Below are positions 14,017 to 30,201 of a stretch of 64,000 nt of DNA, one piece after another. The stretch is from the NCBI GenBank assembly GCA_964595565.1, contig CAZQQX010000001.1, forward strand, positions 8,074 through 72,073, in the 5' to 3' direction. The stretch is from an uncultured Actinomycetota bacterium (GTDB lineage Bacteria > Actinomycetota > Humimicrobiia > Humimicrobiales > Humimicrobiaceae). A program made the translations under genes and the position numbers. Numbering within the stretch: the stretch's first letter is position 1; each line of letters starts with the position of its first letter. Below the pieces are notes generated by a model that did not search any database, was not told the origin of the DNA, and was given only the letters and a program-made list of their open reading frames with translations.

Positions 14017-15075
14017 ATGAACATCAATGATATTTTACTTGAGGCCATAAATGTAAATGCATCGGATGTACATATTGTATGTGTCCTCCCCCCTATATTC
14101 AGGGTACATGGAAATCTGGTAAAGTTAGAAAAATTTGGAGATATTACTCCTGAACTGGCAGAAAAAATGTTAATCAGGATATTAAATGAAGAACAAATTA
14201 AAAGGTTAAGGGAAGGGCTGTCTGTTGATTTCTCTCATACTATATCGGGCTATGGGAGATTCAGATGCAGTTATTATTATCAGAGAAACACACTTGCAGC
14301 TGCTTTTAGATACATATCAAGAGTAATTCCATCTGTTGAAGAACTCGGTTTACCCCTTCAGATTAAAGAATTTGCAAAATATCCGCGGGGTCTCGTGCTG
14401 GTTACGGGCCCCACCGGTTGCGGTAAGTCAACGACACTTGCGTCCATAATTGAGATAATAAATCAAAACAGGTCTGAAAATATAATAACCGTTGAAGACC
14501 CTATAGAGTATCTGTTTACACATAAAAAAAGTATAATATCCCAGAGAGAAATATTGGCGGATGCTCATTCATTCGCAGATGCCCTTAAATATGTTTTGAG
14601 GGAAGACCCGGATGTTATAATGGTGGGAGAGATGAGGGACCTGGAGACAATATCAAGCACTCTTACTGCTGCAGAAACCGGGCACCTTGTTTTTTCTACC
14701 CTTCATACCCAGGACGCGCCCCAGACCATTGATAGGATAATAGATGTATTTCCAACTCATCAGCAAAGGCAGGTAAGGGCACAGCTTGCCGGAACTTTAA
14801 AGGCAGTACTGGTGCAACAGTTATTAACTACAAGAGAAGGTGATGGAAGGGTGCCTGCAACAGAGCTTATGTTCGTTAACGATGCCATAAAAAATATGAT
14901 AAGAGAAGTAAAGGTGCATCAGATTTATTCATCAATACAGGCGAGCGGCAGGAGGGGTATGATGACCATGGATATGTCGCTGGTGAACCTCTATAAGGCA
15001 GGAAAGATTTCAGAGGAAACGGCGCTGGAAAAGGCACACAGCGTAGAAGAGGTAAGAAGAATGATTAATGGCTGA
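14017..15075 (+). CDS. pilT: Type IV pilus retraction ATPase PilT
   Basis: Walker A GPTGCGKSTT, TVEDPIEY, LREDPDVIMVGEMRD, TGHLVFSTLHT and the PilT signature AIKNMIRE. It lacks the long N-terminal domains of PilB. Confidence 0.93.
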   Translation: MNINDILLEAINVNASDVHIVCVLPPIFRVHGNLVKLEKFGDITPELAEKMLIRILNEEQIKRLREGLSVDFSHTISGYGRFRCSYYYQRNTLAAAFRYISRVIPSVEELGLPLQIKEFAKYPRGLVLVTGPTGCGKSTTLASIIEIINQNRSENIITVEDPIEYLFTHKKSIISQREILADAHSFADALKYVLREDPDVIMVGEMRDLETISSTLTAAETGHLVFSTLHTQDAPQTIDRIIDVFPTHQQRQVRAQLAGTLKAVLVQQLLTTREGDGRVPATELMFVNDAIKNMIREVKVHQIYSSIQASGRRGMMTMDMSLVNLYKAGKISEETALEKAHSVEEVRRMING

Positions 15076-15110: not shown

Positions 15111-16340
15111 ATGACAGTATACAATTATACGGTTAGGGATTTAAAAGGTGAGTCAATTAAGGGTTTTATAGATGCCGAAACACAGGATGTTGTTGAATCA
15201 AAGCTAAAGGACATGGGCTATTTTATAATCAATATTGATAAAGCAAAAGAAGAGAAAAAGCTCAAATTAAAAGGCTCTTCAGAAGGTTTTAGTTTTTTTA
15301 ATCGTATAAAAATAAGAGATATGGTTATTTTCACCAGGCAGTTTTCTACTCTTATTTCTTCGGGGATGTCCTTGCTTGAATCGCTTATTGTTCTTGAAAG
15401 GCAAACCGCGAATCTTAAGTTAAAAAAAATAATTTCAGAAATAAGGGTATACGTGGAATCGGGCCATTCACTATCAGAATCAATGGAAAACCACCCTAAA
15501 GTTTTTAGCAGGTTATATGTAAGTCTGATAAGGGCAGGCGAGGCGGGAGGCGTGCTTGATAGGACCATGAATGACCTGGCAAATTTCCTTGAAAGAGAAG
15601 AGGAATTGAGATTAACCATAAGAAATAAAACAGCTTATCCAAAATTTATTCTGGTTTTTGCTGCAATTATATCTATTGTGATGATAGTATTTCTGGTTCC
15701 TACTTTTGAAGGTATATATGAAGAGCTGGGAGCAGAGCTTCCGGGAATTACAAAAGCGGTTATGGCAGTAGGCGGGTTATTTAAAAATATATATTTTTAC
15801 CTTATTCTGGTAGTTGTTGTATTTGGTGGAAGATATTTATTTAAAAAATTCGTAAGTTCAAAAAAGGGAAGACACATAATGGATAGTGTAAAAATTAATT
15901 TGCCGAAATTTGGTGACCTCTTTAGAAAAATGTCGCTGGCAAGATTTGCGAGACATTTTGGGATATTGCTTGCCACCGGGGTTCCAATATTAAATTCACT
16001 GGAAATTGCCAAGGGAGTTGCGGACAATGTTATTATTGATGAAGCACTTGAAGAAATAAGGACCAGTATAAGAGAAGGGGAAAATATTTCTGATCCCATG
16101 TCAGGCATATCTATTTTCCCTGATATGATGGTACAGATGATAGGGGTGGGGGAAAGGACCGGTACGCTGGATAGCATTTCAAGTAAAATTGCGGATTTTT
16201 ATGATAACGAAGTGGCAAATACCATAGATATGCTGGTAACAGTGCTGGAACCCCTGATGCTTTTGTTTGTAGCGGGGTTTATAGGTATAATTGTAATATC
16301 AATGTATCTTCCGATGTTTAATATATACCAGGCAATGTAA
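15111..16340 (+). CDS. pilC: Type IV pilus platform protein PilC (GspF family)
   Basis: FTRQFSTLISSG, AGEAGG and GERTG...LEP motifs; two GspF repeats and three TM segments. Confidence 0.93.
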   Translation: MTVYNYTVRDLKGESIKGFIDAETQDVVESKLKDMGYFIINIDKAKEEKKLKLKGSSEGFSFFNRIKIRDMVIFTRQFSTLISSGMSLLESLIVLERQTANLKLKKIISEIRVYVESGHSLSESMENHPKVFSRLYVSLIRAGEAGGVLDRTMNDLANFLEREEELRLTIRNKTAYPKFILVFAAIISIVMIVFLVPTFEGIYEELGAELPGITKAVMAVGGLFKNIYFYLILVVVVFGGRYLFKKFVSSKKGRHIMDSVKINLPKFGDLFRKMSLARFARHFGILLATGVPILNSLEIAKGVADNVIIDEALEEIRTSIREGENISDPMSGISIFPDMMVQMIGVGERTGTLDSISSKIADFYDNEVANTIDMLVTVLEPLMLLFVAGFIGIIVISMYLPMFNIYQAM

Positions 16341-17278: not shown

Positions 17279-17385
17279 TGTATAATAAATAATTTTATAA
17301 TTTTATATTTTATTATATAATAATTAAATATAATTTTTAATTAATATATAATTTTCTATATTTAGGAATATAAATATAAATAAAT

Positions 17386-17410
17386 GTCTAAAAATTTTAT
17401 TTAAGGGTAT
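17386..17410 (+). promoter_or_regulatory. SigB-type promoter upstream of the major pilin
   Basis: GTCTAA (17386-17391)-N13-GGGTAT (17405-17410), one mismatch from the Bacillus SigB consensus GTTTAA-N12-14-GGGWAW, 55 nt before the pilin ATG. Confidence 0.55.
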
Positions 17411-17465
17411 AATAATATAATGAATAATAAAAAAATAATTTTCTATCAAATAAAGGAGGTAAGAA

Positions 17466-17876
17466 ATGAAGTGGTTATACAGGCATATGCATAAGGATGA
17501 GAAAGGATTCACACTTGTTGAACTTATGATAGTAATCATAATACTGGCAATCCTTACTGCAATTGCTGTACCGAGCTACATGGTATTAAGAAACAGGGCA
17601 AGGATAGCAGCAGCTCAGAGCGAATTAAAGAATATCGCCACTGCTCTGGAGATGCACTACGCGGATAAGGAAGCTTATCCGGCAACTACCTTTGCGGCAC
17701 TGGTGACAGCACTTGAAGGTGGTGCATATATGGATCCGGTACCTCCAACCGACCCATGGGATACTGGCTATGTATACACATTAGCTGCTGGTTCTTATAC
17801 CCTGGAAAGCTATGGACCGGATAAAGCGGACGCCGGTGATGACGATATAGAAATAATAGATGGGCAGCTGCAATAA
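17466..17876 (+). CDS. pilA: Major type IV pilin with GspG-like C-terminus
   Basis: Class III signal KDEKG/FTLVELMIV with Glu5; C-terminal DPWDTGYVY...SYGPDK..GDDDI as in the T2SS GspG family. Strong SD (GGAGGT), with its own promoter and terminator. Confidence 0.85.
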   Translation: MKWLYRHMHKDEKGFTLVELMIVIIILAILTAIAVPSYMVLRNRARIAAAQSELKNIATALEMHYADKEAYPATTFAALVTALEGGAYMDPVPPTDPWDTGYVYTLAAGSYTLESYGPDKADAGDDDIEIIDGQLQ

Positions 17877-17926
17877 TAGTGGCGATATAATACAAATTAT
17901 ATCGGAGTAAAAATAATATAAAAAAA

Positions 17927-17970
17927 TAAATTAAGAGGTAGTTATTAAGACTGCCTCTTAATTTATTTAA
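17927..17970 (+). terminator. Intrinsic terminator after the major pilin
   Basis: TAAATTAAGAGGTAG / CTGCCTCTTAATTTA stem followed by a T-rich tract. An A-tract upstream means it could be bidirectional. Confidence 0.8.
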
Positions 17971-17993
17971 ATTTCAGGTCAATATTTTAATTT

Positions 17994-18022
17994 TTGACTA
18001 AAGAAAAATACCATGTTATTAT
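17994..18022 (+). promoter_or_regulatory. sigmaA-type promoter for pilD-pilMNOP-aroCKB
   Basis: TTGACT-N17-TATTAT with an extended -10 TG at 18014-18015, just downstream of the pilin terminator. Confidence 0.6.
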
Positions 18023-18187
18023 TAAAAGATAAAAAAAATTATATAAATTTATATTATTAAAATATTAAAGTTATACAGGAAAAATAATTTTTTAAAATTA
18101 TTATTCAATTATAATAAATATAGCAATATAATAGAAAAAATATAAATTTACCGATTGTAAAAAAACTGTAATAAAGTAATAAGCAAA

Positions 18188-18949
18188 ATGGAAATATATA
18201 AAGTATTTTTATATATAATATTTATTACATGCGGCCTTACTGCAGGCAGCTTTCTTGGAGTTGTTGCATACAGGCTTCCCCGTAAAATATCTATAATAAA
18301 GCCGCGTTCATTTTGCCCCCATTGCAGAAAAGAGATTCCTTTTTATGATAATATTCCTGTAATTTCCTATATTATGCTCAGGGGAAGATGCAGGTTCTGT
18401 AAGAATAAGATACCGGTAAATACACTATTAATAGAATTAATAACCGCAATAGTATTTGTATTAAATTATATTTTTTTTGGTTTATCCGTAAAAACAATAA
18501 GCGGGATTATTCTATGCATCGTTCTGATAGTAATATCTTTTATTGACATTGAATTTCAAATAATACCAAATGCGATAATACTTCCATTTACCATTGTGGG
18601 GCTGGCATTAAGCGTTTTTTTAAATTTAGAAAGATGGTGGATGCCTCTTGCATTCGGTGCCGGGGCTTTTTTGTTTATGCTTATAATTCACCTTATAATT
18701 CCCCGGGGAATGGGAATGGGTGATGTCAAGTTAAGTCTTATGGCAGGAGTGTTTCTGGTAAGGGATGTGATACCGGCACTGTTTCTGGGGTTTCTGACAG
18801 GTGCATTGTATGGTGTATTGCTGGTTATCGCAAGAAAAAGGAAATTAAAACAGCTAGTAGCATTCGGGCCCTTTATTTCACTGGGAAGTATAATTGCTTT
18901 ATTTTGGGGTAATAATATTTTAAAATGGTATGTAAGTTTTTTAAAATAA
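18188..18949 (+). CDS. pilD: Prepilin peptidase / N-methyltransferase
   Basis: PRSFCPHC...GRCRFC zinc motifs, FIDIE and GMGMGDVKL catalytic Asp residues, and AFGPF. Confidence 0.95.
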   Translation: MEIYKVFLYIIFITCGLTAGSFLGVVAYRLPRKISIIKPRSFCPHCRKEIPFYDNIPVISYIMLRGRCRFCKNKIPVNTLLIELITAIVFVLNYIFFGLSVKTISGIILCIVLIVISFIDIEFQIIPNAIILPFTIVGLALSVFLNLERWWMPLAFGAGAFLFMLIIHLIIPRGMGMGDVKLSLMAGVFLVRDVIPALFLGFLTGALYGVLLVIARKRKLKQLVAFGPFISLGSIIALFWGNNILKWYVSFLK

Positions 18950-18956
18950 AAAGAGA

Positions 18957-20126
18957 GTGATTAAAATGCTGGCAGTAGGATTAAATTTAAGTTCATCAAG
19001 ATTAAGTATTGTTGAGCTTTTAAAATCAAGAAATGGCTTTACTATTGCGAATATGGCAAGAGAAGAGATACCACCGGACTGTATGGTCAAAGGGGAAGTT
19101 CAGGATGCACAAATTCTTTCAAACAGTTTAAAGGAAGTCTGGAGAAAAAATAAGATTTCTGACAGGAAAGTCTTCATCGGAATTGCAAACCAGAAAGTGA
19201 TTGCAAAAGAAATCCGGATACCGGTTATAAATGACGATGAAATAAAGAATTCCATACAATACCAGATCAGTGATTTTATTCCCATACCCAGGAATAATAT
19301 TTTATATGATTATTACGTGGTTGAAAAAGGAGAGGACCATTCAAGAATAATGCTGGTAGGGGCGATGAAGAGCATGATAAATGATGTGGTTTCAAGTTTT
19401 AAAAAGGCCGGTCTGCTCGCACAGGCTATTGATTTAAACTGCTTTGCATTATACAGGACGGTAAACTATATAAAAGGAATTGAAAAAGATAAAGATGTAA
19501 AGAACAAGCATACAGCTTTTTGTGTCGCGAACCTTGGAGTGGAAATTTCAATAATAGAGATGATACAGGACTATAACTTAAAATATCCGAGATTTACGTC
19601 TACTTCTATAGGAAGCTTTACTAATGAGATTTCAAAGGAAACAAAAAAAGATGATAAATATTGCGGGGAAGTATTATCAAAATTTGATTTCAAATCCCTG
19701 CTGTTAAAGAAAAACGAACCAGAAAAGAAGAAGAAAGAAACCGGAGATTCTTTCATTAAACCTGAAGAAAAAGAGAGTAAAAATTCCGGTAAAGATAAAG
19801 TTAAAGATGAGCCTGACAGCGATAAAGTGAAAGAAATAATAAAAAGCACCACGGATAGGTTTATAGGGGAAATTAAATTATCGGTGGAACACTTCTTACA
19901 GGAAAATCCCAAATCAAGTGTGGGGAAAATTATTTTAACCGGTGAATATATAAGAAATATTGATAAATATATAGAACAGGAAATAGAATATAAAGTTGAA
20001 ATGTTAAATATAAACGATTATTTTCCATTAAAAAATATTAAAATAGCTGCGGGTTATAGTGAAGACGGGGGTTACATGCTTGACCCGGTAGCTATAGGCA
20101 TGGCATTAAGGGGCTTAAATCAATGA
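18957..20126 (+). CDS. pilM: Type IV pilus assembly protein PilM
   Basis: Actin-like N-terminus (VGLNLSSSRLSIVE), IQYQISDFIPIP, IILTG and C-terminal VAIGMALRG; first gene of an M-N-O series. Confidence 0.85.
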   Translation: MIKMLAVGLNLSSSRLSIVELLKSRNGFTIANMAREEIPPDCMVKGEVQDAQILSNSLKEVWRKNKISDRKVFIGIANQKVIAKEIRIPVINDDEIKNSIQYQISDFIPIPRNNILYDYYVVEKGEDHSRIMLVGAMKSMINDVVSSFKKAGLLAQAIDLNCFALYRTVNYIKGIEKDKDVKNKHTAFCVANLGVEISIIEMIQDYNLKYPRFTSTSIGSFTNEISKETKKDDKYCGEVLSKFDFKSLLLKKNEPEKKKKETGDSFIKPEEKESKNSGKDKVKDEPDSDKVKEIIKSTTDRFIGEIKLSVEHFLQENPKSSVGKIILTGEYIRNIDKYIEQEIEYKVEMLNINDYFPLKNIKIAAGYSEDGGYMLDPVAIGMALRGLNQ

Positions 20127-20824
20127 AAACTATAAACCTCCTTCCAAAGGAAGAGAGAGTTAGAGATGTAAAAAGTATAATGCTTGGCGCGGTGATGGTA
20201 ATATTAATAATATTATTAATAGCAGCGGCCGGCTTTTCCTTTATAATTTACAACGTTAACCGCGGTCTAACACCGGAGCTGGAAAATTACGAAAGAGTAA
20301 ATATGCAGCTAAATAATTATATAAATAAATTACAGGCCTATACCAGTTTTAAAGAAGAAGTAAACAAGAAAGCTAAAGTTATAGAATATTTAAAGGCCAG
20401 GGAAATATTATGGTCGGACATACTTTATGATTTTGGAGAAAATATGCCGGAAAATGCTTATATTGATTATATGGAGGGTGACAGTGAGAGGTTTTATTCG
20501 TTAATTTCCAGCCTTGAAGAGGGTGAAGTTGAAGAGATAAATAAAGTATTATTATTTACAATTTCGGGAAATGCGCTTGATTACAAAGATGTTACGAGAT
20601 TACTGGTTTATTTAAGAAATATGGAAAATATAGGAGAAGTATGGATTAACAATATCAGTAAGGATTATGTAACAAGCTCCAATTTGGATGTATTATCTTT
20701 TAATATCAGCGCATATCTTGACATAGGGCCATATATAGAAGAACTGGGTCTGGATGAAGTTGAAAAAGAAGAGACCGGCGACGAAGAAATACTGGACCAG
20801 GAACTGGAGATGCTGAATCAGTAA
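20123..20824 (+). CDS. pilN: Type IV pilus assembly protein PilN
   Basis: N-terminal INLLP motif, a TM helix, a coiled coil and WSDIL. Confidence 0.85.
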   Translation: MKTINLLPKEERVRDVKSIMLGAVMVILIILLIAAAGFSFIIYNVNRGLTPELENYERVNMQLNNYINKLQAYTSFKEEVNKKAKVIEYLKAREILWSDILYDFGENMPENAYIDYMEGDSERFYSLISSLEEGEVEEINKVLLFTISGNALDYKDVTRLLVYLRNMENIGEVWINNISKDYVTSSNLDVLSFNISAYLDIGPYIEELGLDEVEKEETGDEEILDQELEMLNQ

Positions 20825-20860
20825 ATGTAGATAAATTAATAAATATTTTTTTATATTAAT

Positions 20861-21400
20861 ATGAATATTAAAATTAAAATAATTATAATAATAGCAATTT
20901 TTCTGGTGATTGTTTTACTTACGGTACTGGTTCTTGTTCCCAATCTGACTGCAAGTATTAAAAACAATGCTTCTATTGAAAGAGAAAAAGAAGAAAATAA
21001 AGCATTGATGGAGAATTTGAACAATCTTATTCTGGTAAGGGATGAATATCATTTAATGAATGCAGAATACCAGAAGTATTCATTACAACTCCCGACAGGC
21101 GGCGATAACAGTATTTTTACCAATGAGATTTATGATATTGCCAGTTACTCAGATGTGGATATTTACTCTATTAATTATTCAGAAAAAACTGTAAGTGAGG
21201 AAGAAGAAAAAATGGGCCTGGTTATAACTGAGGCCGATTTAATTATAGATGGTTCTTATTATGATATATTAAACTTCATAAACACGGTTGAAAAAATTCC
21301 GAGGATAGCAAAGGTCAATAAAATAATAATTCAATCTACGGGTAGCGAGTATGAATATTTGAGCGCCAATATAAGAATTGAATTGTATTATAAAAAATAA
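20861..21400 (+). CDS. pilO: Type IV pilus assembly protein PilO
   Basis: N-terminal TM, coiled coil, QLP and GSYYDILNFINTVEKIPRI motifs. Confidence 0.85.
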   Translation: MNIKIKIIIIIAIFLVIVLLTVLVLVPNLTASIKNNASIEREKEENKALMENLNNLILVRDEYHLMNAEYQKYSLQLPTGGDNSIFTNEIYDIASYSDVDIYSINYSEKTVSEEEEKMGLVITEADLIIDGSYYDILNFINTVEKIPRIAKVNKIIIQSTGSEYEYLSANIRIELYYKK

Positions 21401-21411
21401 ATTAAAAAAAT

Positions 21412-21951
21412 ATGATATTTAAAAAAAGTAAAAAAATAATTCCATCAAAGAGTTTTAACGTTAAGGATATTATAATTGCAGCCGGCTTTATAACGGTCTT
21501 TATTATTATGTCCATATCTGTTTATGGATGTTCTGTCATTAATCTCATGAGTAAAGACTATAGCGACGCAAAAGAGGAACCGGTTCTGCCAGAAGTTGAA
21601 ATAGATGAAAGCGAAGTTGAAGAAATTAAAAAGGGGGAAGAAGATATAAAGAAAGGCTATGTTATTGAAAGCGAAATCAAACTAATTGATGATTCAATAA
21701 GAGACCCATTTAAACCATTTTATATAGTAGAAGAAGAGGAAAAAGAAAATATTATTACACTGGAGAGAATCTTTAGCAAAGATGGGGTTGAATATGCCGA
21801 AATAAATTTTAATGAATATATTTATAATTTGAAAGAGTCTGATACTCTATCAGATGTTTATTTAATCAAGGCAATAAATATAAACTCGTTGGTATTATTA
21901 AAGGGAGACGAAATAATAACCCTGTATATCGGAATTCCGGTATACGACTGA
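21412..21951 (+). CDS. PilP-like putative lipoprotein
   Basis: Lipobox-like SVYGC after a hydrophobic stretch, acidic linker, RDPFKPF motif and beta-rich C-terminus. It sits immediately after pilO. Confidence 0.55.
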   Translation: MIFKKSKKIIPSKSFNVKDIIIAAGFITVFIIMSISVYGCSVINLMSKDYSDAKEEPVLPEVEIDESEVEEIKKGEEDIKKGYVIESEIKLIDDSIRDPFKPFYIVEEEEKENIITLERIFSKDGVEYAEINFNEYIYNLKESDTLSDVYLIKAININSLVLLKGDEIITLYIGIPVYD

Positions 21952-21967
21952 AAAAGGTGTTTAAAAT

Positions 21968-23143
21968 TTGAGATTTCTAACAGCCGGTGAGTCTCACGGA
22001 AAATATCTTACAGGAATTATAGATGAATATCCTTCAGGTGTTGAAATTGATGTAGATTTATTAAACAGAGAGCTTCACAGAAGACAGAGCGGTTTTGGAA
22101 GAGGCGGAAGGATGTCCATAGAAGATGACACCATAGAGATAATTTCCGGAGTAAGGAAAGGTAAAACTACTGGTTCCCCGGTATCTTTTATTATAGCAAA
22201 CAGGGACTGGGATAACTGGAAAGAGATAATGGATACAGGTCCACGGGGTAAAGAAAGGGACAGGGGTGGAGATAAATTATTGAATCCCAGGCCGGGACAT
22301 GCAGATTTAAATGGTTATATAAAATACAGGCTTGATGATATAAGAGATGTAATAGAGAGAAGCAGTGCAAGAGAGACAGCGGCAAGAGTGGCCGTGGGTT
22401 GTTTTGCCAGGATAATCTTAAAATTGCTTGGAATAAGTATATTCAGTTATGTATATCAGATAGGAAATATTGTATTGGGGAACAGAGTAAAAGAAGGAAG
22501 AATAAATGAGAGCACGCTAAAAGAAATTGAATCATCAGAAGTCAGGTGCCCCGATAAAGAAATTAGTTTAAAAATGAAGGAAGAAATAACCAGAGTAATC
22601 AAAAATGGCGACAGCATTGGAGGAAAATTCAGGGTCATTGCCACAGGGATACCTCCGGGTCTTGGCTCATATGAGCAATGGGATAAAAGGATTGACTCAA
22701 GGATAGCGGGTTTGTTTATGAGCATACCTGCAGTAAAAGCTATTGAAATCGGGGACGGGTTTATGGCACCATATATAACCGGGATTAATTTCCATGATAA
22801 AATTTACTATAAAAAAGGTACCGGTTTTTATAGAAAAACAAACAGAGCCGGAGGGATAGAGGGAGGAATAACAAACGGGGAATCGGTTGTTATAGGGGTA
22901 AGTATGAAGCCGGTACCCACCACATCTAAAGGTCCTGGCACGGTTAATATAAAAACAAAAAAAGCCTCAGCAAGCCTTAAAGAAAGGTCGGATGTCTGTG
23001 TGGTTCCGGCTGCTTCAGTGATTGGCGAATCAATGTTATCCATAGTGATTTTAAATGAAATACAGGAAAAGTTTGGTAAGGATAATATAGATGAAATTTT
23101 AGAAAATTATAAAAACTATAAAAAATATATTGGAAAAATTTAA
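21968..23143 (+). CDS. aroC: Chorismate synthase
   Basis: TAGESHG, PRPGHAD, ERSSARETAARVA, GGIEGGITNG and MKPVPT motifs. Confidence 0.97.
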   Translation: MRFLTAGESHGKYLTGIIDEYPSGVEIDVDLLNRELHRRQSGFGRGGRMSIEDDTIEIISGVRKGKTTGSPVSFIIANRDWDNWKEIMDTGPRGKERDRGGDKLLNPRPGHADLNGYIKYRLDDIRDVIERSSARETAARVAVGCFARIILKLLGISIFSYVYQIGNIVLGNRVKEGRINESTLKEIESSEVRCPDKEISLKMKEEITRVIKNGDSIGGKFRVIATGIPPGLGSYEQWDKRIDSRIAGLFMSIPAVKAIEIGDGFMAPYITGINFHDKIYYKKGTGFYRKTNRAGGIEGGITNGESVVIGVSMKPVPTTSKGPGTVNIKTKKASASLKERSDVCVVPAASVIGESMLSIVILNEIQEKFGKDNIDEILENYKNYKKYIGKI

Positions 23144-23149
23144 CATGAT

Positions 23150-23662
23150 ATGGATTACAAGAACATATCTCTTATAGGTTTTATGGGTTCCGGTAAAACT
23201 ACGCTGGGAAGAATACTGGCAGCGGAAAAAAATTTTTTGTTTATTGACCTGGATAGAATAATTGAGTTAGAGGAAAATAAAAGAATAAAAGATATATTTA
23301 AAATATATGGAGAGGATTATTTCAGAAATTTAGAGTCAGAAGTAATAAAAAAAATATATATAAACAAAAATTGCATTTTTGCCTGTGGGGGCGGAGTTGT
23401 AAACAGAAGCAAAAATATGGGAATAATAAGGAGGAACAGCCTGGTAATTTATTTAAGCGTTTCTCCTGAAAATGTTTTTAAGCGTTTAAAAAATACAGGA
23501 GATAGACCTCTTATTGAAGTAGAAAACAGGGAAGAGGCTATAAGAAATCTGGCCGGTAAAAGAGATAAGCTTTACAGAAAATATGCAGATATAATTATAA
23601 ATAATGACCGGGATGAACCTGCCGGGGCTTCGGGGCGAATATTAAACCTGCTTAACTCCTGA
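23150..23662 (+). CDS. aroK: Shikimate kinase
   Basis: GFMGSGKTT, FRNLE, CGGGVV and RPL motifs. Confidence 0.95.
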   Translation: MDYKNISLIGFMGSGKTTLGRILAAEKNFLFIDLDRIIELEENKRIKDIFKIYGEDYFRNLESEVIKKIYINKNCIFACGGGVVNRSKNMGIIRRNSLVIYLSVSPENVFKRLKNTGDRPLIEVENREEAIRNLAGKRDKLYRKYADIIINNDRDEPAGASGRILNLLNS

Positions 23663-23700
23663 GTAACCTTAAAATAAATATGTGGATAACCAAAAAGTAA

Positions 23701-24810
23701 ATGAAAATAGTTAAAGTTAAAACAATTTTAAAAAAGTACCCTGTATATACAGACACTGTTTTTAAAGATTTTTTACCGGAACTGATAAAAAAAAGGTTTG
23801 AAGATTGCGAAAAAATCCTCCTTGTAACCAACGATAAAATATATGGAATTTATAAAAAAACCATAAAAGATTCTCTCGGAGGATGCGGGCTTCCGAGTGA
23901 GATTGCAATAATAAGGGATGGCGAAGAATTTAAAAGCCAGGAAAGTGTTGATTACCTGTATGGAAGCCTTATCGACTTTAATGTACACAGAAATGATGTT
24001 GTCGTTTCATTTGGAGGAGGAGTAATAGGTGATATAGCGGGATTTGCAGCTGCTACATTTCACAGGGGAATTAAGTTTATCCAGTGCCCCACAACTATAA
24101 TAGGGCAGGTTGACAGTAGCATAGGCGGAAAAGTGGGTGTTAATTATAGTAATATAAAAAATATAATCGGAAGTTTCTATCAACCTGATGCAGTTGTTAT
24201 TGACCCGGAATTCATATATACACTTGATGAAGACCAGATAATAAACGGGCTGGGTGAAATAGTAAAATACGGGATAGTATTTGATAAAGAAATACTGGAA
24301 AAACTGGAAGGAAATGTATGCAGTGATGATAGAGATAGATTATTTAAACTTGTTAAGAAAAAAGTATTCAGGGATATTATATACAGGTGCTGTTATATAA
24401 AAGCAAAGGTAATTGAGAAAGATGAATTTGATACCGGCTACAGAAATTTATTAAATTTTGGGCATACAATAGGTCACAGTATAGAAAATGTCTTCAATCT
24501 TAAAGATATAAACCATGGTAAGGCTGTTAGTATCGGAATGATAATAGCAATGGATATATCAATTTCACTTGGTCTGTTAAAAAAAGAATTTAAAGACAGA
24601 ATAATAGAATTGTATAAAAAGCTAAAACTACCCTTCAGATTGCCGGAGATAAATCTGGCTAAAATTATTGATGTAATAAAATATGATAAGAAATTTAAGT
24701 CTTCCAAGAATAAATTTGTTCTTCTTAAAGGTCTAAACAAACCTGTTTTCTATTATAACCTCAGTAAGGGTACAATTGTTGATAATATAAAAAAAAGTAT
24801 GTATAATTAA
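23701..24810 (+). CDS. aroB: 3-dehydroquinate synthase
   Basis: GGGVIGD, PTTIIGQVDSSIGGKVGVN, LNFGHTIGHSIE and HGKAV motifs. Confidence 0.95.
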   Translation: MKIVKVKTILKKYPVYTDTVFKDFLPELIKKRFEDCEKILLVTNDKIYGIYKKTIKDSLGGCGLPSEIAIIRDGEEFKSQESVDYLYGSLIDFNVHRNDVVVSFGGGVIGDIAGFAAATFHRGIKFIQCPTTIIGQVDSSIGGKVGVNYSNIKNIIGSFYQPDAVVIDPEFIYTLDEDQIINGLGEIVKYGIVFDKEILEKLEGNVCSDDRDRLFKLVKKKVFRDIIYRCCYIKAKVIEKDEFDTGYRNLLNFGHTIGHSIENVFNLKDINHGKAVSIGMIIAMDISISLGLLKKEFKDRIIELYKKLKLPFRLPEINLAKIIDVIKYDKKFKSSKNKFVLLKGLNKPVFYYNLSKGTIVDNIKKSMYN

Positions 24811-24930
24811 ATAGAAATATATATAAGGAATATATCAAATATATTATTAATAGTTGAGCAGAGACTGAATTTTATACTAATTTTATTAATATACCGGGTT
24901 TGTAAATTTTTATTATAGGAAAAAGAAAAA

Positions 24931-25362
24931 ATGAAAAGAATTATTATAATTAACGGACCTAATTTAAATTTGCTGGGTGAAAGAGAAGAAGAAATATATG
25001 GAGAAAAAAGTTTCAATGATGTAGAAAGAGAGCTTGACGAAGTTGTAAAAGGAAAAGCAGAACTCCTGTATTTCCAGTCCAATCATGAAGGAGAGATTAT
25101 AGATAAAATTCATGAGTGTATGGGTAGTATAGACTGTATTATTATAAACCCCGGAGCATTAACCCACTATAGCTATGGTATTTATGATGCCATAGTGGCG
25201 AGTAAAATCAGAACCATAGAAGTGCATATATCAAATATATTCAGAAGAGAAGATTGGAGAGGAAAGTCTGTTGTATCTCCTGCTGCATCGGGTATTATAA
25301 TCGGGCTGGGTATGGATGTATACAGAATAGCGGTTGAATATATAATTAATTATAATGATTGA
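24931..25362 (+). CDS. aroQ: Type II 3-dehydroquinate dehydratase
   Basis: NGPNLNLLGERE..IYG, QSNHEG, NPGALTHYS and EVHISN motifs. Confidence 0.95.
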   Translation: MKRIIIINGPNLNLLGEREEEIYGEKSFNDVERELDEVVKGKAELLYFQSNHEGEIIDKIHECMGSIDCIIINPGALTHYSYGIYDAIVASKIRTIEVHISNIFRREDWRGKSVVSPAASGIIIGLGMDVYRIAVEYIINYND

Positions 25363-25374
25363 TAAAAAAGTAAA

Positions 25375-26697
25375 ATGTTAAGCAGATATTTAAAGGTTAT
25401 TAAAAAATATATAAATAAGGAATTAAATTTAAAACAGGAAGATGGCTTTAGCCTTGTGGAGGTGATAGTAGCTTTTTTTATAATGTCTATTATAACTGTC
25501 GTGCTGGTAAGGGGAACTATGATCGCGGTTGATACTATAAAAGTAAATAAAGCAAAAACTAAAGCTTTAGCGGTTGCCAGTGAAAAAATGGAGCTCATAA
25601 GGGCAATGGATTATGAAGGCATTGAGCTTACATCCGTAAATCCTGACTGGGGTGAGGATAACCCTGCGCTTATTGAAGATGGTTATGGTATAAGCTATGA
25701 AGTCAGTGAAGTTTATGTAAGTGGAAGTAGCTATAAGCAGATAAAGTTATCTATCTCAAAAGATCCGATGAATACAGCGATAAATGTAATTACACAGATT
25801 TATCCCCTGGCAGGGGGCGGGGAAGGAACAAACCCGGGCGACACTACACCGCCTGAGGCACCGACCGGGCTGGTAGCTACAGCAACCGGCTCATACAGTA
25901 TAGACCTTGACTGGGATGACAACACAGAGCCAGACCTGGCAGGATATAAAGTATACAGGGATACTGTAAGCGGATTTACACCCGATGGCGGTAATTTTGT
26001 AGCAGATGCGACTTCAAGTTTGTATTCTGATACTGGACTAACTGCCACAACAACGTATTATTACAGAGTAACAGCAGTGGATAACAGCAGTAATGAGTCA
26101 GACCCATCTATTCAGGCAGACGCTACGACATTATCAGGAAGTGACACTACACCGCCTGAGGCACCGACCGGGCTGGTAGCTACAGCAACCGGCTCATACA
26201 GTATAGACCTTGACTGGGATGACAACACAGAGCCAGACCTGGCAGGATATAAAGTATACAGGGATACTGTAAGCGGATTTACACCCGATGGCGGTAATTT
26301 TGTAGCAGATGCGACTTCAAGTTTGTATTCTGATACTGGACTAACTGCCACAACAACGTATTATTACAGAGTAACAGCAGTGGATAACAGCAGTAATGAG
26401 TCAGACCCATCTATTCAGGCAGACGCTACGACATTATTAGAATATACTTATATAAGTTTACCGTTTGAGCATGATGGGGCAGGAGAATATTATTGGAAAT
26501 CAGACGGGTTTTCAACTGACCCGGGGGATTGGGCAAGCTATGTGAACTCATGGAGCCTAGACATTCTTGAGATTAACGGGGTAAATTATACCAATAAGTG
26601 GAAGGCACAACATGATATACCGCCAGAAAGTGACGGTTACTGGTATATTTATTATAAAGCAAGTTCTAAGAATGGTCATATAGAAATTGGTCCATAG
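25375..26697 (+). CDS. Minor pilin (PilV/GspI-like) with two Fn3 domains and a C-terminal CBM64-like module
   Basis: Class III signal QEDG/FSLVEVIV; PilV-like helix KAKTKALAVASEKMELIR; two DTTPPEAPTGL...WDDNTEPDLAGYKVYR...YYYRVTAVD Fn3 repeats; C-terminal LPFEHDGAGEYYWK...DW..YVNSW...DGYWYI module. Confidence 0.8.
   Translation: MLSRYLKVIKKYINKELNLKQEDGFSLVEVIVAFFIMSIITVVLVRGTMIAVDTIKVNKAKTKALAVASEKMELIRAMDYEGIELTSVNPDWGEDNPALIEDGYGISYEVSEVYVSGSSYKQIKLSISKDPMNTAINVITQIYPLAGGGEGTNPGDTTPPEAPTGLVATATGSYSIDLDWDDNTEPDLAGYKVYRDTVSGFTPDGGNFVADATSSLYSDTGLTATTTYYYRVTAVDNSSNESDPSIQADATTLSGSDTTPPEAPTGLVATATGSYSIDLDWDDNTEPDLAGYKVYRDTVSGFTPDGGNFVADATSSLYSDTGLTATTTYYYRVTAVDNSSNESDPSIQADATTLLEYTYISLPFEHDGAGEYYWKSDGFSTDPGDWASYVNSWSLDILEINGVNYTNKWKAQHDIPPESDGYWYIYYKASSKNGHIEIGP
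25840..26437 (+). repeat. Perfect tandem duplication, 2 x 295 bp (period 303 bp = 101 codons)
   Basis: 25840-26134 and 26143-26437 read identical base for base by eye; each encodes one Fn3 domain. Confidence 0.9.
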
Positions 26698-26806
26698 GGT
26701 AATGGTATTTAAATTAATTTATATAAGAATTATTTTTGGAGTTTGGGTAAATGAAAGAAGTTATAATTATATAAATAGTTTAATAAAAATATAAGAGATA
26801 AACTAA

Positions 26807-27388
26807 ATGATTAAGTTACGAGGAAAAATTTTTAAAAAGATAACAGATAATAAGGGTTTTACAATGATTGAGATGCTTCTGGTAGTTCTTCTTATTGTCG
26901 TTATTGTAAGCATGGTTTCGGCTACATATCTCCTATCGGGAAATACATCAAGAGATATTGTTGATATAACCACTTCAATGATAGACTCAAGGGTTGTTAT
27001 ATACAGATTGACCAAAGACTTAAGGGAATCATCTGATATAACTCAGGCATATGCAGACAGTATAATTTTTACAAGCAACGTTGATGATGATGGGGATGAT
27101 GAGGTAGTAAATTACTATTTAACAGCTGTAGGTAGTTATTATGAACTTTACAGGAAAATAGATACAGAGCCTGCTAAATTTGTAGCCACCAATATAATTG
27201 ATAATAACCTATTTACTTATTATACAGATATAGGAACTCCAGAAGGAGGAGTTGTCACTCCTGTTAGTGCAGAAGAGTTAGGAAATATAAAATTAATTGG
27301 AATTGAACTGAAAATTGACCAGAGCGGAGGAGATACCCAGAGAAAAATGGAACTTGAAACTGTTGTTTCTCTGAGAAATAGAATATAA
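26807..27388 (+). CDS. Minor pilin (PilW/GspJ-like)
   Basis: Class III signal DNKG/FTMIEMLLVV with Glu5; RLTKDLRES helix; C-terminal TVVSLRN. Confidence 0.8.
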   Translation: MIKLRGKIFKKITDNKGFTMIEMLLVVLLIVVIVSMVSATYLLSGNTSRDIVDITTSMIDSRVVIYRLTKDLRESSDITQAYADSIIFTSNVDDDGDDEVVNYYLTAVGSYYELYRKIDTEPAKFVATNIIDNNLFTYYTDIGTPEGGVVTPVSAEELGNIKLIGIELKIDQSGGDTQRKMELETVVSLRNRI

Positions 27389-27414
27389 ATTATTTTTTAT
27401 ATAATATTTTTAAA

Positions 27415-29040
27415 GTGATTAAAATGATAAAAGTAATATTAAATTTAAAAAAAGAAAAAAGAGGCAATATAACCATACTTATTTTAATAATGGGTTTTGC
27501 AGTAATATTGCTGACCACTGCTATGGTTGGATATATTTTTCGTGACATTAACTATGTTGAACTTGACAGGAAAAAATTAAGGGCACTAAATATCGCAGAG
27601 GCAGGCATATCAAACATGTTTTTGAATATTGAAAAACATTATACCGAAGAAGATGTTACTTTACCCTCAAGTCCCTATACCGGAGAAATAATTGATAATG
27701 GTAATTCAGAGGGAACTTTTACTGTTGAATATGACTCACAGTCTGATGGGGACTTGACTATATACAATGTTACTTCTACAGGTGTTGACAAAGATGGTAT
27801 GGAAAGAATGGTAAGAGTAAAAATAAATGTTTTAAATCCAGGTCCCGCTCTTGACATTTATGACTATGTATATACAGCGACATCAGCTACTACCAGCGGG
27901 GACTTCAAGACTGTAGATGGGCCTTTTTATACTGATGGAGATCTAAATATTACCGCAGGTTCCGGTATATCCCAGGACCAGAGCGAAGGGCCAATAATTG
28001 TAAAAGGTGACTTATATATAAGTGGAGATGCAGTTAGTGTAAAGCAGGAATTTCTATCAGTAGGTGGAAATGTGGTAATGGGAGGCAGCGGAAAGATACT
28101 GGGTGGCCAGGTTAACATAGCAGGCAGCCTTACCATGTCCGGAGGGACTTATATAGACGAGGGGCTGGTAAGCCCGATGATTGTAATGGGTGATATTGAT
28201 ATGAGCAGCGGCAGCCCCCGTATAGGAGAATCGGGGGAAGACCTTATTCTATCATGTAACGGGACAATAAACCCCTGGCCTCCAAATTCATGGGCCCCGA
28301 TATACGCCACCAGGGATGACAGTCTGACATATACATTTGTTGACCCTCAGTATGATGTTAGTAGTCTTATTGATGAATACTATTCTGAAGTTCAGGACTC
28401 TGCAGATCCTATTAATGGAAATCTTACACTGAGTGATGAAAACGTACCTTATAACTATGAAGATACATATGGAAACAGTCTCAGTTTTGAGAAAGAGGGA
28501 GATGACTATGTACTGGAAATTAATGGAAATATAATTGTAGATGGTAATTTACAGATTGGAATTGAAGAGTGGTGGATTCCTGAATTAAGCGGTCCCAGCA
28601 CCAATGAAATATATTACAGGGGTAAAGGAATTATATATACCACCGGAAATATCAAGACAGTTACCACGCTCTGGCCCGACCCCCTGGAAGATTTTCCTGA
28701 AAGTACTCTCCTGGTGCTGGTATCAAATGGGACTATTGAATCATATGTATGGAGAGAATATGATTATATTGTCGCAAGTAATATTAATGACCAGCCCCCG
28801 CTTATGTATATGGTAGGGATTGCAAAAGGCAATATAAAAATAGCGGGAGGGGGAGGAAATGCAGCCATTGTAAAGGGTACGTTGATTACTGGTGGCCTTC
28901 TTGATGCTGATTATTATAATGCCAAAATTTATTACCAGCAGGGAATTAAAGATAGTTTACCTCCCGAGCTTCCCAGCAGTGATCCGGGTGGAGGGGAAAT
29001 AGTCATTACCAGAGCAGAATGGCAGGAAGCAATTAATTAA
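27415..29040 (+). CDS. Minor pilin (PilX/GspK-like) with glycine-rich beta-solenoid-like region
   Basis: KKEKRG/NITILILIMG (no Glu5, as in PilX/GspK); ALNIAEAGI PilX-N motif; VTSTG; repeated xxxxGDLxIxG units; C-terminal WQE. Confidence 0.75.
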   Translation: MIKMIKVILNLKKEKRGNITILILIMGFAVILLTTAMVGYIFRDINYVELDRKKLRALNIAEAGISNMFLNIEKHYTEEDVTLPSSPYTGEIIDNGNSEGTFTVEYDSQSDGDLTIYNVTSTGVDKDGMERMVRVKINVLNPGPALDIYDYVYTATSATTSGDFKTVDGPFYTDGDLNITAGSGISQDQSEGPIIVKGDLYISGDAVSVKQEFLSVGGNVVMGGSGKILGGQVNIAGSLTMSGGTYIDEGLVSPMIVMGDIDMSSGSPRIGESGEDLILSCNGTINPWPPNSWAPIYATRDDSLTYTFVDPQYDVSSLIDEYYSEVQDSADPINGNLTLSDENVPYNYEDTYGNSLSFEKEGDDYVLEINGNIIVDGNLQIGIEEWWIPELSGPSTNEIYYRGKGIIYTTGNIKTVTTLWPDPLEDFPESTLLVLVSNGTIESYVWREYDYIVASNINDQPPLMYMVGIAKGNIKIAGGGGNAAIVKGTLITGGLLDADYYNAKIYYQQGIKDSLPPELPSSDPGGGEIVITRAEWQEAIN

Positions 29041-29082
29041 AATATTAAACAGGTTTGGTTTTACGGGAAATTTCGGTATAAA

Positions 29083-30201
29083 TTGACTGATTTATTTAAA
29101 TCAAGAATTGAAAACATAAAAAATATCTTAAGCAGTGAAAATCTTTCAAATCTTCTTATTTTAAGTGATGAAAACATTTATTATTTGACCGGGTTTTATG
29201 GAAAAAACTCGGGTAGTTTATTACTTATAACTGATAATAAATTACACCTTATTACTAATTTCCTTTATCTTGAACAGGCAAAAAAATCCATTGATAACGA
29301 CAGTTTAAATATTGTGTTTTACCGCAGGGATAGATTTAAAAAGCTTTTAGAAATACTTGAAGGTTATAATTTTGAGTCTGTTAACCTGGAGGGCAAAAAT
29401 ATCAGTTTTAAAGACGGATTGAATCTCGGAAAGATGTTATCCCGGCAGAATAAGGAATTCAAAATTAAAGACGGTCTGGTTGAGAAATTAAGAATTATTA
29501 AAGATGAAGTAGAGATTTCTAAAATAAAAAATGCCTGCAAAATTACCGATAATGCCTTTAATAAAATACTGGATTATGGCGCTAAAAAGGTTGAGAGCCT
29601 TTCCGAAGTCGAACTATCCTTTAGTCTGGAAGAATTAATGGTAAAAAATAATTCAATAGGAAAGTCATTTGATATAATTGTTGCCTATGATAAAAATTCT
29701 TCAATGCCTCATTACTCACCACAAAAAATAAAGGTAAAAGACGGTATCGTGCTGATGGATTTTGGCTGCAGGTATACAAATTACTGTTCGGATATGACAA
29801 GAACTATTTTTACCAGAAATAATAAAATTTGTAATGAATTTAAAAAAATATATGATATAGTTTTAGAGGCGCAGTATAAGGCAATAAAATTTTGCAGGGA
29901 AGGAATTACCTGCAGGGAGCTTGACAGCACGGCAAGGAACTTTATAAGCTCAAAGGGTTATGGTAATAATTTTGGTCACGGCCTGGGACATGGCGTTGGT
30001 CTTGAAATACATGAAGAGCCGATAGTAAATCCGGAAAGCAATACAGTCTTAAAAGAAAATATGATTATAACCGTAGAGCCGGGCATCTATATAGAAGATT
30101 TTGGCGGTGTGAGGATAGAAGACATGTTGCTTGTAAAAAAGAACGCTTGCGAAGTTTTATATGGTTCAACAAAAGAGTTTTTTATAATGGCTGATTTTTA
30201 A
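29083..30201 (+). CDS. Xaa-Pro aminopeptidase (M24B)
   Basis: DFGCRYTNYCSDMTRT, FGHGLGHGVGLEIHE, TVEPGIY and GVRIED motifs; aroQ-pepP-efp-nusB synteny. Confidence 0.92.
   Translation: MTDLFKSRIENIKNILSSENLSNLLILSDENIYYLTGFYGKNSGSLLLITDNKLHLITNFLYLEQAKKSIDNDSLNIVFYRRDRFKKLLEILEGYNFESVNLEGKNISFKDGLNLGKMLSRQNKEFKIKDGLVEKLRIIKDEVEISKIKNACKITDNAFNKILDYGAKKVESLSEVELSFSLEELMVKNNSIGKSFDIIVAYDKNSSMPHYSPQKIKVKDGIVLMDFGCRYTNYCSDMTRTIFTRNNKICNEFKKIYDIVLEAQYKAIKFCREGITCRELDSTARNFISSKGYGNNFGHGLGHGVGLEIHEEPIVNPESNTVLKENMIITVEPGIYIEDFGGVRIEDMLLVKKNACEVLYGSTKEFFIMADF

Follow-up and report, generated by a model that had tools for sequence, protein, structure and literature searches.

A modular type IV pilin-like protein with a C-terminal CBM64 module

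Here we describe a prepilin-like protein in which a pilin module is followed by two Fn3 domains and a C-terminal carbohydrate-binding module of family CBM64, which is usually borne by cellulases. The fusion is conserved under purifying selection. It is probably a modular minor pilin of a type IV pilus (T4P) that displays its CBM64 and sticks the pilus to plant fibre. The DNA analysed (the window, 64 kb in full) also encodes much of a pilus assembly apparatus, and the coordinates of the features are collected in Table 1. The host is an uncultured, AT-rich sediment bacterium.

Domain architecture

The ORF at 25375-26697 (+) starts with ATG and encodes 440 aa, according to a reading-frame check of the window. 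A preliminary description of this DNA had placed here a prepilin fused to two Fn3 domains and a CBM64-like module, and the frame, the layout and the module peptide quoted there all proved correct. The N terminus bears a class III signal peptide with Gly at -1, Phe at +1 and Glu at +5 (G/FSLVEV, where the slash marks the predicted cleavage site). The N-methylation motif, G24/F25...E29, occurs in the context QEDG/FSLVEVIVAFFIMSIITVVLV with its stretch of ~20 hydrophobic residues, and the leader peptide is kept among the orthologues. This region (residues 21-44) is matched by Pfam N_methyl PF07963 (25.4 bits, cut-off 21.2), while the NCBIfam model TIGR02532 reaches 14.1 bits, below its cut-off of 16.3. 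With PF07963, two copies of PF00041 and PF18666, the protein falls under the modular pilin definition of Raynaud et al. 2021 (PMC8179133).

In an AF2 model of residues 1-150 (mean pLDDT 88), helix 27-76 is followed by strands 105-115, 118-128 and 136-142, and the long alpha-1 helix packs against the antiparallel sheet that these strands form. The Fn3 domains (PF00041, two stretches, 56 bits) are encoded by two tandem copies of DNA that are 100% identical over 298 nt (25840-26137 and 26143-26440), with a spacing of 303 nt. The AF2 model of the full-length protein has a mean pLDDT of 54; the CBM64 region falls below 50 because the alignment is shallow, and platform geometry was not read from this model. 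The gene index has no entry with exactly this 440-aa sequence, and a promoter/terminator scan gave no signal above shuffled expectation.

Table 1. Features of the CBM64 pilin gene and of the surrounding pilus genes, in window coordinates
Feature	Position	Strand	Basis
Prepilin leader peptide, 24 aa, MLSRYLKVIKKYINKELNLKQEDG	25375..25446	+	predicted cleavage after G24
Pilin module, hydrophobic alpha-1 helix and small three-stranded beta-sheet, F25 to ~L145 (mature)	25447..25809	+	AF2 model, homologues
Gly-rich linker AGGGEGTNPG	25810..25839	+	sequence; pLDDT <50 in full-length model
Fn3 domain 1, first copy of 303-nt tandem repeat	25840..26142	+	PF00041
Fn3 domain 2, second copy, joined to CBM64 without linker	26143..26439	+	PF00041
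CBM64 module (aa 356-440) and stop codon	26440..26697	+	PF18666 101-106 bits; 5e9p_A E 4.6e-38
Platform residue W386	26530-26532	+	alignment to founder
Platform residue W393	26551-26553	+	alignment to founder
Platform residue W409	26599-26601	+	alignment to founder
Platform residue N433 (fourth position)	26671-26673	+	alignment to founder
Second prepilin-like minor pilin, 193 aa, G/FTMIEM	26807..27388	+	PF07963 and TIGR02532 above cut-off
541-aa protein, hydrophobic N-terminal helix, no Glu5; candidate PilX/GspK-like tip subunit	27415..29040	+	predicted from sequence
PilT-family retraction ATPase	14017..15075	+	TIGR01420 446 bits, cut-off 319
PilC platform protein	15111..16340	+	PF00482, two stretches
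Candidate major pilin, 136 aa	17466..17876	+	PF07963 38.8 bits, T2SSG 48.7 bits
Prepilin peptidase PilD	18188..18949	+	PF06750, PF01478
PilM, PilN-like protein, PilO (assembly subcomplex)	18957..21400	+	PF11104, PF04350; PilN by position only

The CBM64 module and its aromatic platform

The C-terminal module, previously called CBM64-like, is a CBM64 by family profile and by homology to founding members. PF18666 matches residues 357-438 in the whole protein (E 3.3e-29, 101.2 bits, cut-off 25) and the isolated 85-aa module (E 7.8e-31, 106.4 bits). With the module as query, a phmmer search of the PDB retrieved the solved Spirochaeta thermophila CBM64s, 5e9p_A from a GH5 enzyme (E 4.6e-38, 83 residues ungapped) and 5lu3_A (StCBM64C, E 1.2e-32). 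The founder platform consists of W488, W495, W511 and W535 (PMC7867066), which align with W386, W393, W409 and N433, in agreement with the three retained tryptophans and the Asn at the last position given in the preliminary description. Single Trp-to-Ala mutants of the S. thermophila CBM64 still bind, with affinity 5-16-fold lower and a faster off-rate (bioRxiv 10.1101/2020.07.02.183293).

Of 230 domains across the family, 128 lack the first platform position and 168 have an aromatic residue at the fourth. As the loop bearing the first Trp is absent from most CBM64 domains, their face has three aromatics as well, and by alignment three aromatics on the face are usual for the family, as PMC12330340 also reports. 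Platforms borne by pilins read WWW-N, WWW-G and WWY-D, so that three aromatics are kept in every copy and the fourth is lost. This loss is not specific to pilins, a possibility that we considered and rejected because the cellulase-borne cassettes of lineage L008 carry S or Y there.

Crystalline cellulose is the ligand of the founding CBM64 members (PMC7867066). CBM64 modules are promiscuous, with xyloglucan, starch and chitin bound in screens: StCBM64C prefers xyloglucan to beta-glucan, and in a screen of the family starch was often bound, and chitin by some modules (PMC12330340). This breadth favours an alternative that we consider unlikely but worth serious weight, namely that the protein is pilus-borne and its natural ligand is something other than plant cellulose, such as chitin, xyloglucan/hemicellulose, starch granules, or exopolysaccharide of the community or of the cell itself. 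On this view the altered three-Trp face would recognise such a glycan, and the protein would serve aggregation or biofilm formation, like T4P-EPS binding in Myxococcus. The loss of the fourth platform residue from all pilin copies, the mosaic exchange of the binding-face segment between strains and the lack of glycoside hydrolase genes among the scanned ORFs of the window are in keeping with such a ligand, whereas the cellulose binding of the founders and the cellulase hosts of the nearest cassette relatives (see below) argue for plant fibre.

The pilin module and the pilus gene cluster

Homologues of the pilin module are prepilins, one of which is named PilV by JGI. The PilV/GspI-type label of the preliminary description is not established. 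PilV TIGR02523 scores 12.9 bits (cut-off 52.2) and GspI TIGR01707 16.4 bits (cut-off 44.35), while a ComGE match lies far below its cut-off, and in all three of these NCBIfam comparisons the N-terminal helix alone aligns. A Foldseek search of the PDB with the pilin-domain model gave no significant match (best E 0.16), although the long free helix may hamper such a search; EpsI (2ret) was returned with E ~0.5 and probability 0.08-0.12. A search of PDB sequences with the pilin profile produced matches confined to the N-terminal helices of pilins. Since the tip location proposed earlier followed from the assumed PilV/GspI class, tip placement now rests on gene order and analogy. The protein is presumptively a minor pilin, gene context being the sole basis of this assignment.

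The CBM64 pilin gene is followed by the genes for the 193-aa prepilin and the 541-aa protein without E5. This order would suit a block with J-like and K-like (no Glu5) minor pilins set apart from the major pilin, but neither neighbour reaches the threshold of such a family. The 193-aa prepilin gene adjoins the CBM64 pilin also in lineages L003, L005 and L007. The 541-aa product matches no Pfam or NCBIfam family at its cut-off, and its synteny is conserved in relatives. A prepilin peptidase and assembly machinery are encoded nearby (14017-21400), including a platform protein for which the NCBIfam PilC and GspF models (E 4e-116 and E 1.7e-102) both score below their curated cut-offs. A PilB-type assembly ATPase and a secretin were not found in the 64-kb window.

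The same architecture could belong not to the tip of a long retractile pilus but to a membrane-anchored or short-pseudopilus subunit. Its N-terminal helix would remain in the membrane or in a stub spanning the wall, its Fn3 stalk would push the CBM64 through the wall, and it would act as a static surface adhesin. We regard this as fairly improbable. It would agree with the lack of PilB and secretin in the window, with the failure to establish the PilV/GspI class, with an Fn3 copy number of one or two, as expected of a spacer tuned to wall thickness, and with the analogy of archaeal sugar-binding proteins bearing class III signal peptides. It accords poorly with the setting of the gene in a pilus cluster that looks complete and includes a bona fide PilT as well as a major pilin, with the two additional minor-pilin-like genes that accompany the CBM64 pilin in every relative, and with the conservation of Glu5, a residue that mediates subunit-subunit contacts within filaments.

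Orthologues and origin of the Fn3-CBM64 cassette

Intact orthologous fusions occur in three other sequence lineages, from four independent assemblies/samples. All occupy the same syntenic slot, with aroQ upstream and two pilin-like genes downstream. The orthologue in L007 has 339 aa and one Fn3, that in L003 (from a MAG labelled Actinomycetota) 338 aa and one Fn3, and that in L005/L006 423 aa and two diverged Fn3 domains. The dN/dS ratio stays between 0.1 and 0.25 throughout the gene (pilin module 0.11-0.17, Fn3 0.10-0.25, CBM64 0.17-0.21). In a further relative, L001, a 10-nt deletion at the Fn3/CBM64 junction causes a frameshift. The binding-face segment shows mosaic exchange between strains, with an apparent mosaic patch of 84 nt.

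For the 85-aa module, a word-indexed homologue search returned one fragment only, and an exhaustive search of representatives was required. A scan of metagenome contigs with the pilin-domain profile gave 53 distant pilin loci, none with CBM64; it was swamped by the generic GF[ST]LVE motif and missed the known orthologues, and is thus uninformative on prevalence.

The perfect 303-nt repeat (which could be mis-assembled), the frameshifted L001 copy and the missing gene-index entry might suggest a chimeric assembly, or a pseudogene in decay, with a non-functional CBM64. This explanation is very unlikely and largely refuted by the intact in-frame fusions of the other lineages, by a CBM64 dN/dS well below 1 and by a GC3 like that of the host genome.

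The Fn3+CBM64 cassette is 64% identical over 190 aa to the cassette of a GH5 cellulase, and its nearest relatives (64-67% identity) are all on cellulases, comprising GH5, GH9, GH48 and CBM3-containing proteins. The sharing of one cassette by the pilin and the C-termini of GH5, GH9 and GH48 cellulases points to an origin of the pilin's Fn3-CBM64 part by domain capture, which would mean that domains have moved between secreted cellulases and the subunits of pili. GC content rises inside the gene (0.47 versus 0.30-0.33). The excess sits in codon positions 1-2 (GC12 0.52-0.53), and GC3 (0.36) is near that of the pilin domain and the neighbouring genes; horizontal transfer as the source of the rise is therefore unsupported.

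Proposed mechanism

In the favoured reading, a modular minor pilin that sticks the pilus to plant fibre, the 24-aa leader would be removed by the prepilin peptidase of the same cluster. The N-terminal helix would then insert the protein into the pilus, most likely in a priming/tip complex with the two downstream pilin-like proteins. The one or two Fn3 domains would serve as a spacer of ~4-8 nm presenting the type A CBM64, whose predicted flat W386/W393/W409 face may stack onto glucan chains, either of crystalline cellulose or of a related beta-glucan/xyloglucan surface. The pilus would thus bind plant-fibre particles directly, and the PilT ATPase could then draw the cell onto them by retracting it. 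The sequence analysis itself establishes the domain layout, the assignment to CBM64, purifying selection on the fusion and its setting among pilus genes. We infer the position at the tip, the nature of the ligand and the use of retraction, as well as the twitching along fibres proposed in the preliminary description.

A stronger version, which we put forward tentatively and think doubtful, is that the CBM64 at the tip makes the pilus a grappling hook for crystalline cellulose: after extension of the pilus the three-Trp face would settle on a fibre, and PilT retraction would move the cell along or onto it. The wild-type four-Trp CBM64 has been reported to hold cellulose irreversibly. On the grappling-hook account, three features would be adaptations for reversible binding under load: a platform without its fourth Trp, a binding face exchanged among strains and an Fn3 stalk of variable length. 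If true, pilus-driven motility on an insoluble polysaccharide would gain its first defined receptor-ligand pair. Because the module fused to the pilin is well understood, the grip of the pilus on cellulose can be tested directly with a small recombinant domain and known point mutants.

Comparison with known systems

Modular pilins with lectin or carbohydrate-binding modules are already documented (PMC8179133, PMC9934059). The earlier statement that no pilin-CBM64 fusion had been described stands in that none was found in the literature, and Fn3-plus-CBM64 is absent from the 264 modular-pilin architectures of the 2021 catalogue; the broader type is not new. Since glycan-binding modular pilins such as S. 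sanguinis PilC are known, the CBM64 pilin is best seen as a known type of protein with a new kind of module; it would bring a type A CBM into the modular-pilin repertoire and offers a design hint for the display of CBMs on filaments.

The minor pilins PilC and PilB of S. sanguinis are modular and have been modelled at the pilus tip, and for one of them a lectin module is proven (PMC8179133, PMC9934059). Like them, the present protein combines a carrier, made up of a small pilin module behind a class III signal peptide, with an Ig-like/Fn3-like spacer and a C-terminal glycan-binding module, and is encoded in a monoderm-type T4P cluster. PilC carries a ConA-like lectin for soluble sialylated host glycans and GAGs, whereas the module here is a type A CBM, predicted to meet insoluble crystalline polysaccharide through a flat aromatic face. 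The carrier is a different pilin and has no detectable sequence relationship to that of PilC/PilB. Closer relatives of the carrier also have C-terminal add-ons: in the sister pilins P0154-P0158 (~240 aa) the pilin module is 50-55% identical to that of the CBM64 pilin, and in the CPR pilins L004, P0165 and P0166 it is 25-30% identical. The add-on consists of either one divergent Fn3-like domain or a PF13620/PF13715 domain, and in none is it CBM64.

The binding module itself is ~70% identical, over 83 ungapped residues, to the CBM64s of S. thermophila (GH5 X-module 5E9P; StCBM64C 5LU3), with the same extended loop bearing the first Trp and W-W-W at platform positions 1-3. In S. thermophila the modules stand at the C-terminus of secreted glycoside hydrolases, with W535 as the fourth platform residue, whereas here the partner is a pilin and the fourth residue is Asn (Gly/Asp in orthologues). 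The same Fn3+CBM64 unit is found on cellulases of L008 (CBM3-, GH5- and GH5-CBM46-containing) and L063 (GH9-CBM3-), and platform position 4 is likewise variable in L008 (Y or S). These cassettes are attached to catalytic domains. Their Fn3 and CBM64 are separated by a Gly/Pro linker of 8 residues that the pilin lacks, and their host DNA has 40-42% GC versus 33% here.

In Caldicellulosiruptor, Ruminococcus and Fibrobacter, type IV pili have been implicated in attachment to plant polysaccharide. To our knowledge, no CBM can be recognised in the pilins implicated there, and it is not clear what in them does the binding. In the protein described here, by contrast, a catalogued CBM is covalently part of the pilin.

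Domain architecture and identity of the CBM64 module

The ORF encodes 440 residues, in which Pfam models recognize a prepilin N-methylation motif (residues 21-44, 25.4 bits, cut-off 21.2), two fibronectin type III (Fn3) domains and a C-terminal CBM64 domain (PF18666, residues 357-438, E 3.3e-29, 101 bits, cut-off 25). The cleavage site, QEDG/FSLVEV, is canonical at Gly-1, Phe+1 and Glu+5. The 85-residue module alone aligns without gaps to the solved structures of Spirochaeta thermophila CBM64 (5e9p_A, E 4.6e-38; 5lu3_A, E 1.2e-32). The preliminary description had matched the module to this protein and noted the loss of the last Trp, and all its factual statements on the module are borne out by Pfam, the structures and the alignment.

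With the CBM64 module as query, HMMER matches 465 proteins (E<=1e-3) in an exhaustive search of 1.84 billion representatives. Among the best 150, only P0005 (339 aa) and P0039 (423 aa) have a prepilin N-terminus; their contigs (L007 and L005/L006, respectively) come from three different JGI samples. A search with the pilin module alone adds the MAG contig L003 (CAZRML010000014.1, isolate SRP067234_co1_333), where an intact 338-aa orthologue with one Fn3 and CBM64 lies in synteny identical to the window. L003 is the only named relative, labelled 'uncultured Actinomycetota bacterium', yet its DNA has 33% GC.

Binding face and ligand

The coplanar binding face of S. thermophila CBM64, determined by NMR, consists of W488, W495, W511 and W535 (PMC7867066), which align to W386, W393, W409 and N433 of the window protein (platform positions 1-4). 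Across 230 domains of the family, taken from the best 150 of the 465 proteins, the loop of position 1 is missing in 128, position 2 is Trp in 187, and W, Y or F occupies position 3 in 205 and position 4 in 168. The majority of CBM64s thus present a face of three aromatics. Members of the S. thermophila subgroup carry an additional Trp on an extended loop (PMC12330340). The pilin-borne domains fall in this subgroup and have no aromatic at position 4 (window and L007, WWW-N; L003, WWW-G; P0039, WWY-D); as aligned, their face would again comprise three aromatics, displaced by one position. Such a loss is not unique to pilins, as Ser occupies position 4 in two of three cassettes from cellulase genes on contig L008.

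Versions of the S. thermophila module with one Trp changed to Ala still bind, with affinity reduced 5-16-fold, a lower on-rate and an off-rate raised 2-8-fold (10.1101/2020.07.02.183293), and cellulose binding by the wild type is reported to be irreversible (10.1101/2023.01.02.522519). By analogy with these data, binding by the pilin CBM64 is expected, probably weaker and more readily reversed than that of the S. thermophila wild type. Other CBM64 members bind xyloglucan and, in a screen, starch and chitin, so the ligand here is not certain. A ligand other than cellulose, including an exopolysaccharide of the cell itself or its community, is rather unlikely and would be compatible with the main mechanism.

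Pilus gene cluster and class of the pilin

The gene belongs to a type IV pilus cluster with interspersed shikimate-pathway genes (see table) and a total of three minor-pilin-like genes. The aroC-K-B-Q/pilin order is kept in L003, L006 and L007, and in L005 only aroQ is seen upstream. The scanned ORFs of the 64 kb include no secretin, consistent with a monoderm, and no PilB-size assembly ATPase; two further ORFs are taken, from synteny with L005, to be RecN and CTP synthase. The window also encodes a 7TM/GGDEF/HD-GYP protein, possibly a c-di-GMP surface-sensing regulator.

Features of the window and related contigs (window positions unless a contig is named)
Feature	Position	Remark
6S RNA	6349-6534	Rfam RF00013, 97 bits; between aspS and alaS
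Type IV pilus cluster	13000-29100	
aroE	13058-13942	first in cluster order
PilT-family ATPase		after aroE; TIGR01420 446 bits, cut-off 319
PilC		after PilT
SigB/F/G-type sigma factor	16384-17193	between pilC and major pilin gene
Major pilin candidate		136 aa; after sigma factor
PilD		after major pilin candidate
PilM, PilN-like protein, PilO		after PilD
179-aa ORF	21412-21951	directly after PilO
aroC, aroK, aroB, aroQ	21968-25362	upstream of pilin-CBM64 gene
Pilin-CBM64 gene	25375-26697	+ strand
Fn3 copy-number difference	25840-26440; L007 7319-8338	
84-nt patch	26520-26603; L007 8161-8244; L003 10840-10923	CBM64, W386 to W409
Prepilin		193 aa, G/FTMIEM; directly downstream of pilin-CBM64 gene
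541-aa protein		after 193-aa prepilin; hydrophobic N-terminus, no Glu5
pepP, efp, nusB		after 541-aa protein
Putative RecN, CTP synthase	34029-35798, 35788-37392	
822-aa protein	44059-46527	LVIVD repeats, PKD domain, transglutaminase-like domain
864-aa protein	49523-52117	7TM receptor domain, GGDEF, HD-GYP
tyrA, aroA	53375-55785	further aromatic amino-acid genes
tRNA	61618-61692	
10-nt deletion	L001 2980-3062	
Fn3-CBM64 cassette genes	L008 144-5478; L063 49-9929	
Distant pilin-module homologue	L004 9842-11928	Saccharibacteria MAG; long C-terminal extension

Residues 1-150, modelled with AF2 from 38 homologues, are confidently predicted (pLDDT 88) to form a helix of 50 residues and then a sheet of three strands, a minimal pilin fold. 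The gspI, PilV and ComGE models score far under their cut-offs and cover the helix alone, and Foldseek of the pilin model against the PDB gives no significant match (EpsI, E about 0.5). One pilin-module homologue is called PilV by JGI, which at 30% identity lends the class weak support, and the order of a small pilin, a J-like pilin and a large protein lacking Glu5 resembles the GspI-J-K/PilV-W-X block. From this gene context we infer a minor pilin of a priming or tip complex. In the preliminary description, the fusion and the reading of the module were sound, but the 'PilV/GspI-type' label is not established.

In the proposed mechanism, the leader would be cut after G24 by PilD, and the helix would place the subunit in the filament, probably as part of a capping complex with the two downstream proteins. 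The one or two Fn3 domains would form a stalk, the CBM64 face would stack onto glucan chains of an insoluble polysaccharide, and PilT retraction would then draw the cell to the particle. The same protein could instead be a static adhesin, spanning the wall or anchored in the membrane and not at a pilus tip, which we consider improbable.

Conservation and variant alleles

On L007 and L005/L006 the gene order is aroQ, the pilin-Fn3-CBM64 gene, two pilin-like genes, pepP and efp. L007 (one Fn3) is nearly identical to the window, the pilin module of L003 (one Fn3) shows 91% identity, and L005/L006 (two diverged Fn3) is about 60% identical. This gives three more sequence lineages with the fusion, from four independent assemblies or samples. 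All three parts are under purifying selection, with Nei-Gojobori dN/dS values of 0.11-0.17 (pilin module), 0.10-0.25 (Fn3) and 0.17-0.21 (CBM64). Since intact syntenic orthologues occur in three further lineages, the fusion is real, and an artefact or pseudogene is scarcely credible.

Several variant alleles were observed. In L001, a short contig that shares its species-level type with L003, a 10-nt deletion (TAGAATATAC) with TTAT direct repeats on either side falls exactly at the Fn3/CBM64 junction and puts CBM64 out of frame. The L003 allele, nearly identical elsewhere, is intact; the frameshift reflects either an error of sequencing or a naturally occurring null allele. The window and L007 genes are 100% identical in DNA save for one Fn3 copy fewer in L007 and an 84-nt patch, which has 23 differences from L007 and is 83/84 identical to L003, though the L003 flanks differ by about 8-10%. 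The patch suggests a local recombination or gene-conversion event within the strands of the binding face, or else chimerism between strains in a metagenome assembly. The Fn3 pair of the window is a perfect DNA tandem duplication (298 nt, 100% identity, spacing 303), and the two diverged copies of the more distant L005/L006 orthologue are 64/99 identical to each other. The difference between two perfect copies (window) and one (L007) is either a true stalk-length polymorphism or short-read repeat collapse.

Origin of the module

Among the best 150 of the 465 matches, the nearest non-pilin CBM64 domains sit on cellulases: GH5-CBM64 (P0012, 67%), GH12-CBM64 (P0016) and CBM3-Fn3-CBM64 (P0007). Three consecutive genes of L008 (CBM3-, GH5- and GH5-CBM_X2-CBM46-) end in the same Fn3-CBM64 cassette, as do GH9, CBM3 and GH48 genes of L063; these adjacent cellulase genes lie on unrelated contigs of 40-42% GC. 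Within cellulolytic gene clusters the cassette seems to behave as a mobile unit of two domains. Over 190 residues the Fn3 and CBM64 of the window share 64% identity with the GH5 cassette of L008; the main difference is that the Gly/Pro linker of 8 residues which separates the two domains there is absent from the window.

Sister pilins (P0154-P0158, about 240 aa, pilin module 50-55% identical) lack CBM64 and have just a single divergent Fn3-like domain, and more distant candidate-phyla relatives, including P0165 and P0166, carry PF13620/PF13715 domains. As a family, these pilins seem to serve generally as carriers for add-on domains, and the simplest history would be that a pilin already serving as carrier captured the Fn3-CBM64 cassette of a cellulase gene. 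The GC content of the Fn3 region (47%, window 33.5%) is raised at codon positions 1 and 2, while its GC3 (0.36) is similar to that of the pilin domain (0.33) and neighbours, so there is no sign of recent foreign origin.

Relation to known systems

Modular pilins were defined by Raynaud et al. 2021 (PMC8179133), who catalogued about 1,200 in 264 architectures, including pilin-Fn3, pilin-lectin (PF13385), pilin-PF13620 and pilin-PA14; with Shahin et al. (PMC9934059), the principle is already established. An entry with Fn3 followed by CBM64 is absent from the 264-architecture catalogue (PMC8179133), and full-text searches on CBM64, on modular pilins, on minor pilins bearing carbohydrate-binding modules and on pili and cellulose yielded no description of a pilin-CBM64 fusion. 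The view of the preliminary description that none had been described agrees with both sources. Several InterPro numbers in the catalogue are presumably other CBM families (e.g. CBM2, CBM4/9, CBM5/12); if so, pilin fusions with other CBM families are already present, unremarked, in databases.

Published work ties pili to cellulose or xylan adhesion in Caldicellulosiruptor, Ruminococcus and Fibrobacter, and we know of no recognisable CBM in the pilins concerned. The protein described here is, as judged from sequence, a real modular pilin in which an Fn3 stalk carries a putative type A cellulose-binding module, and it is kept in a small uncultured lineage. The finding is useful because, with a defined domain, pilus-cellulose adhesion becomes testable.
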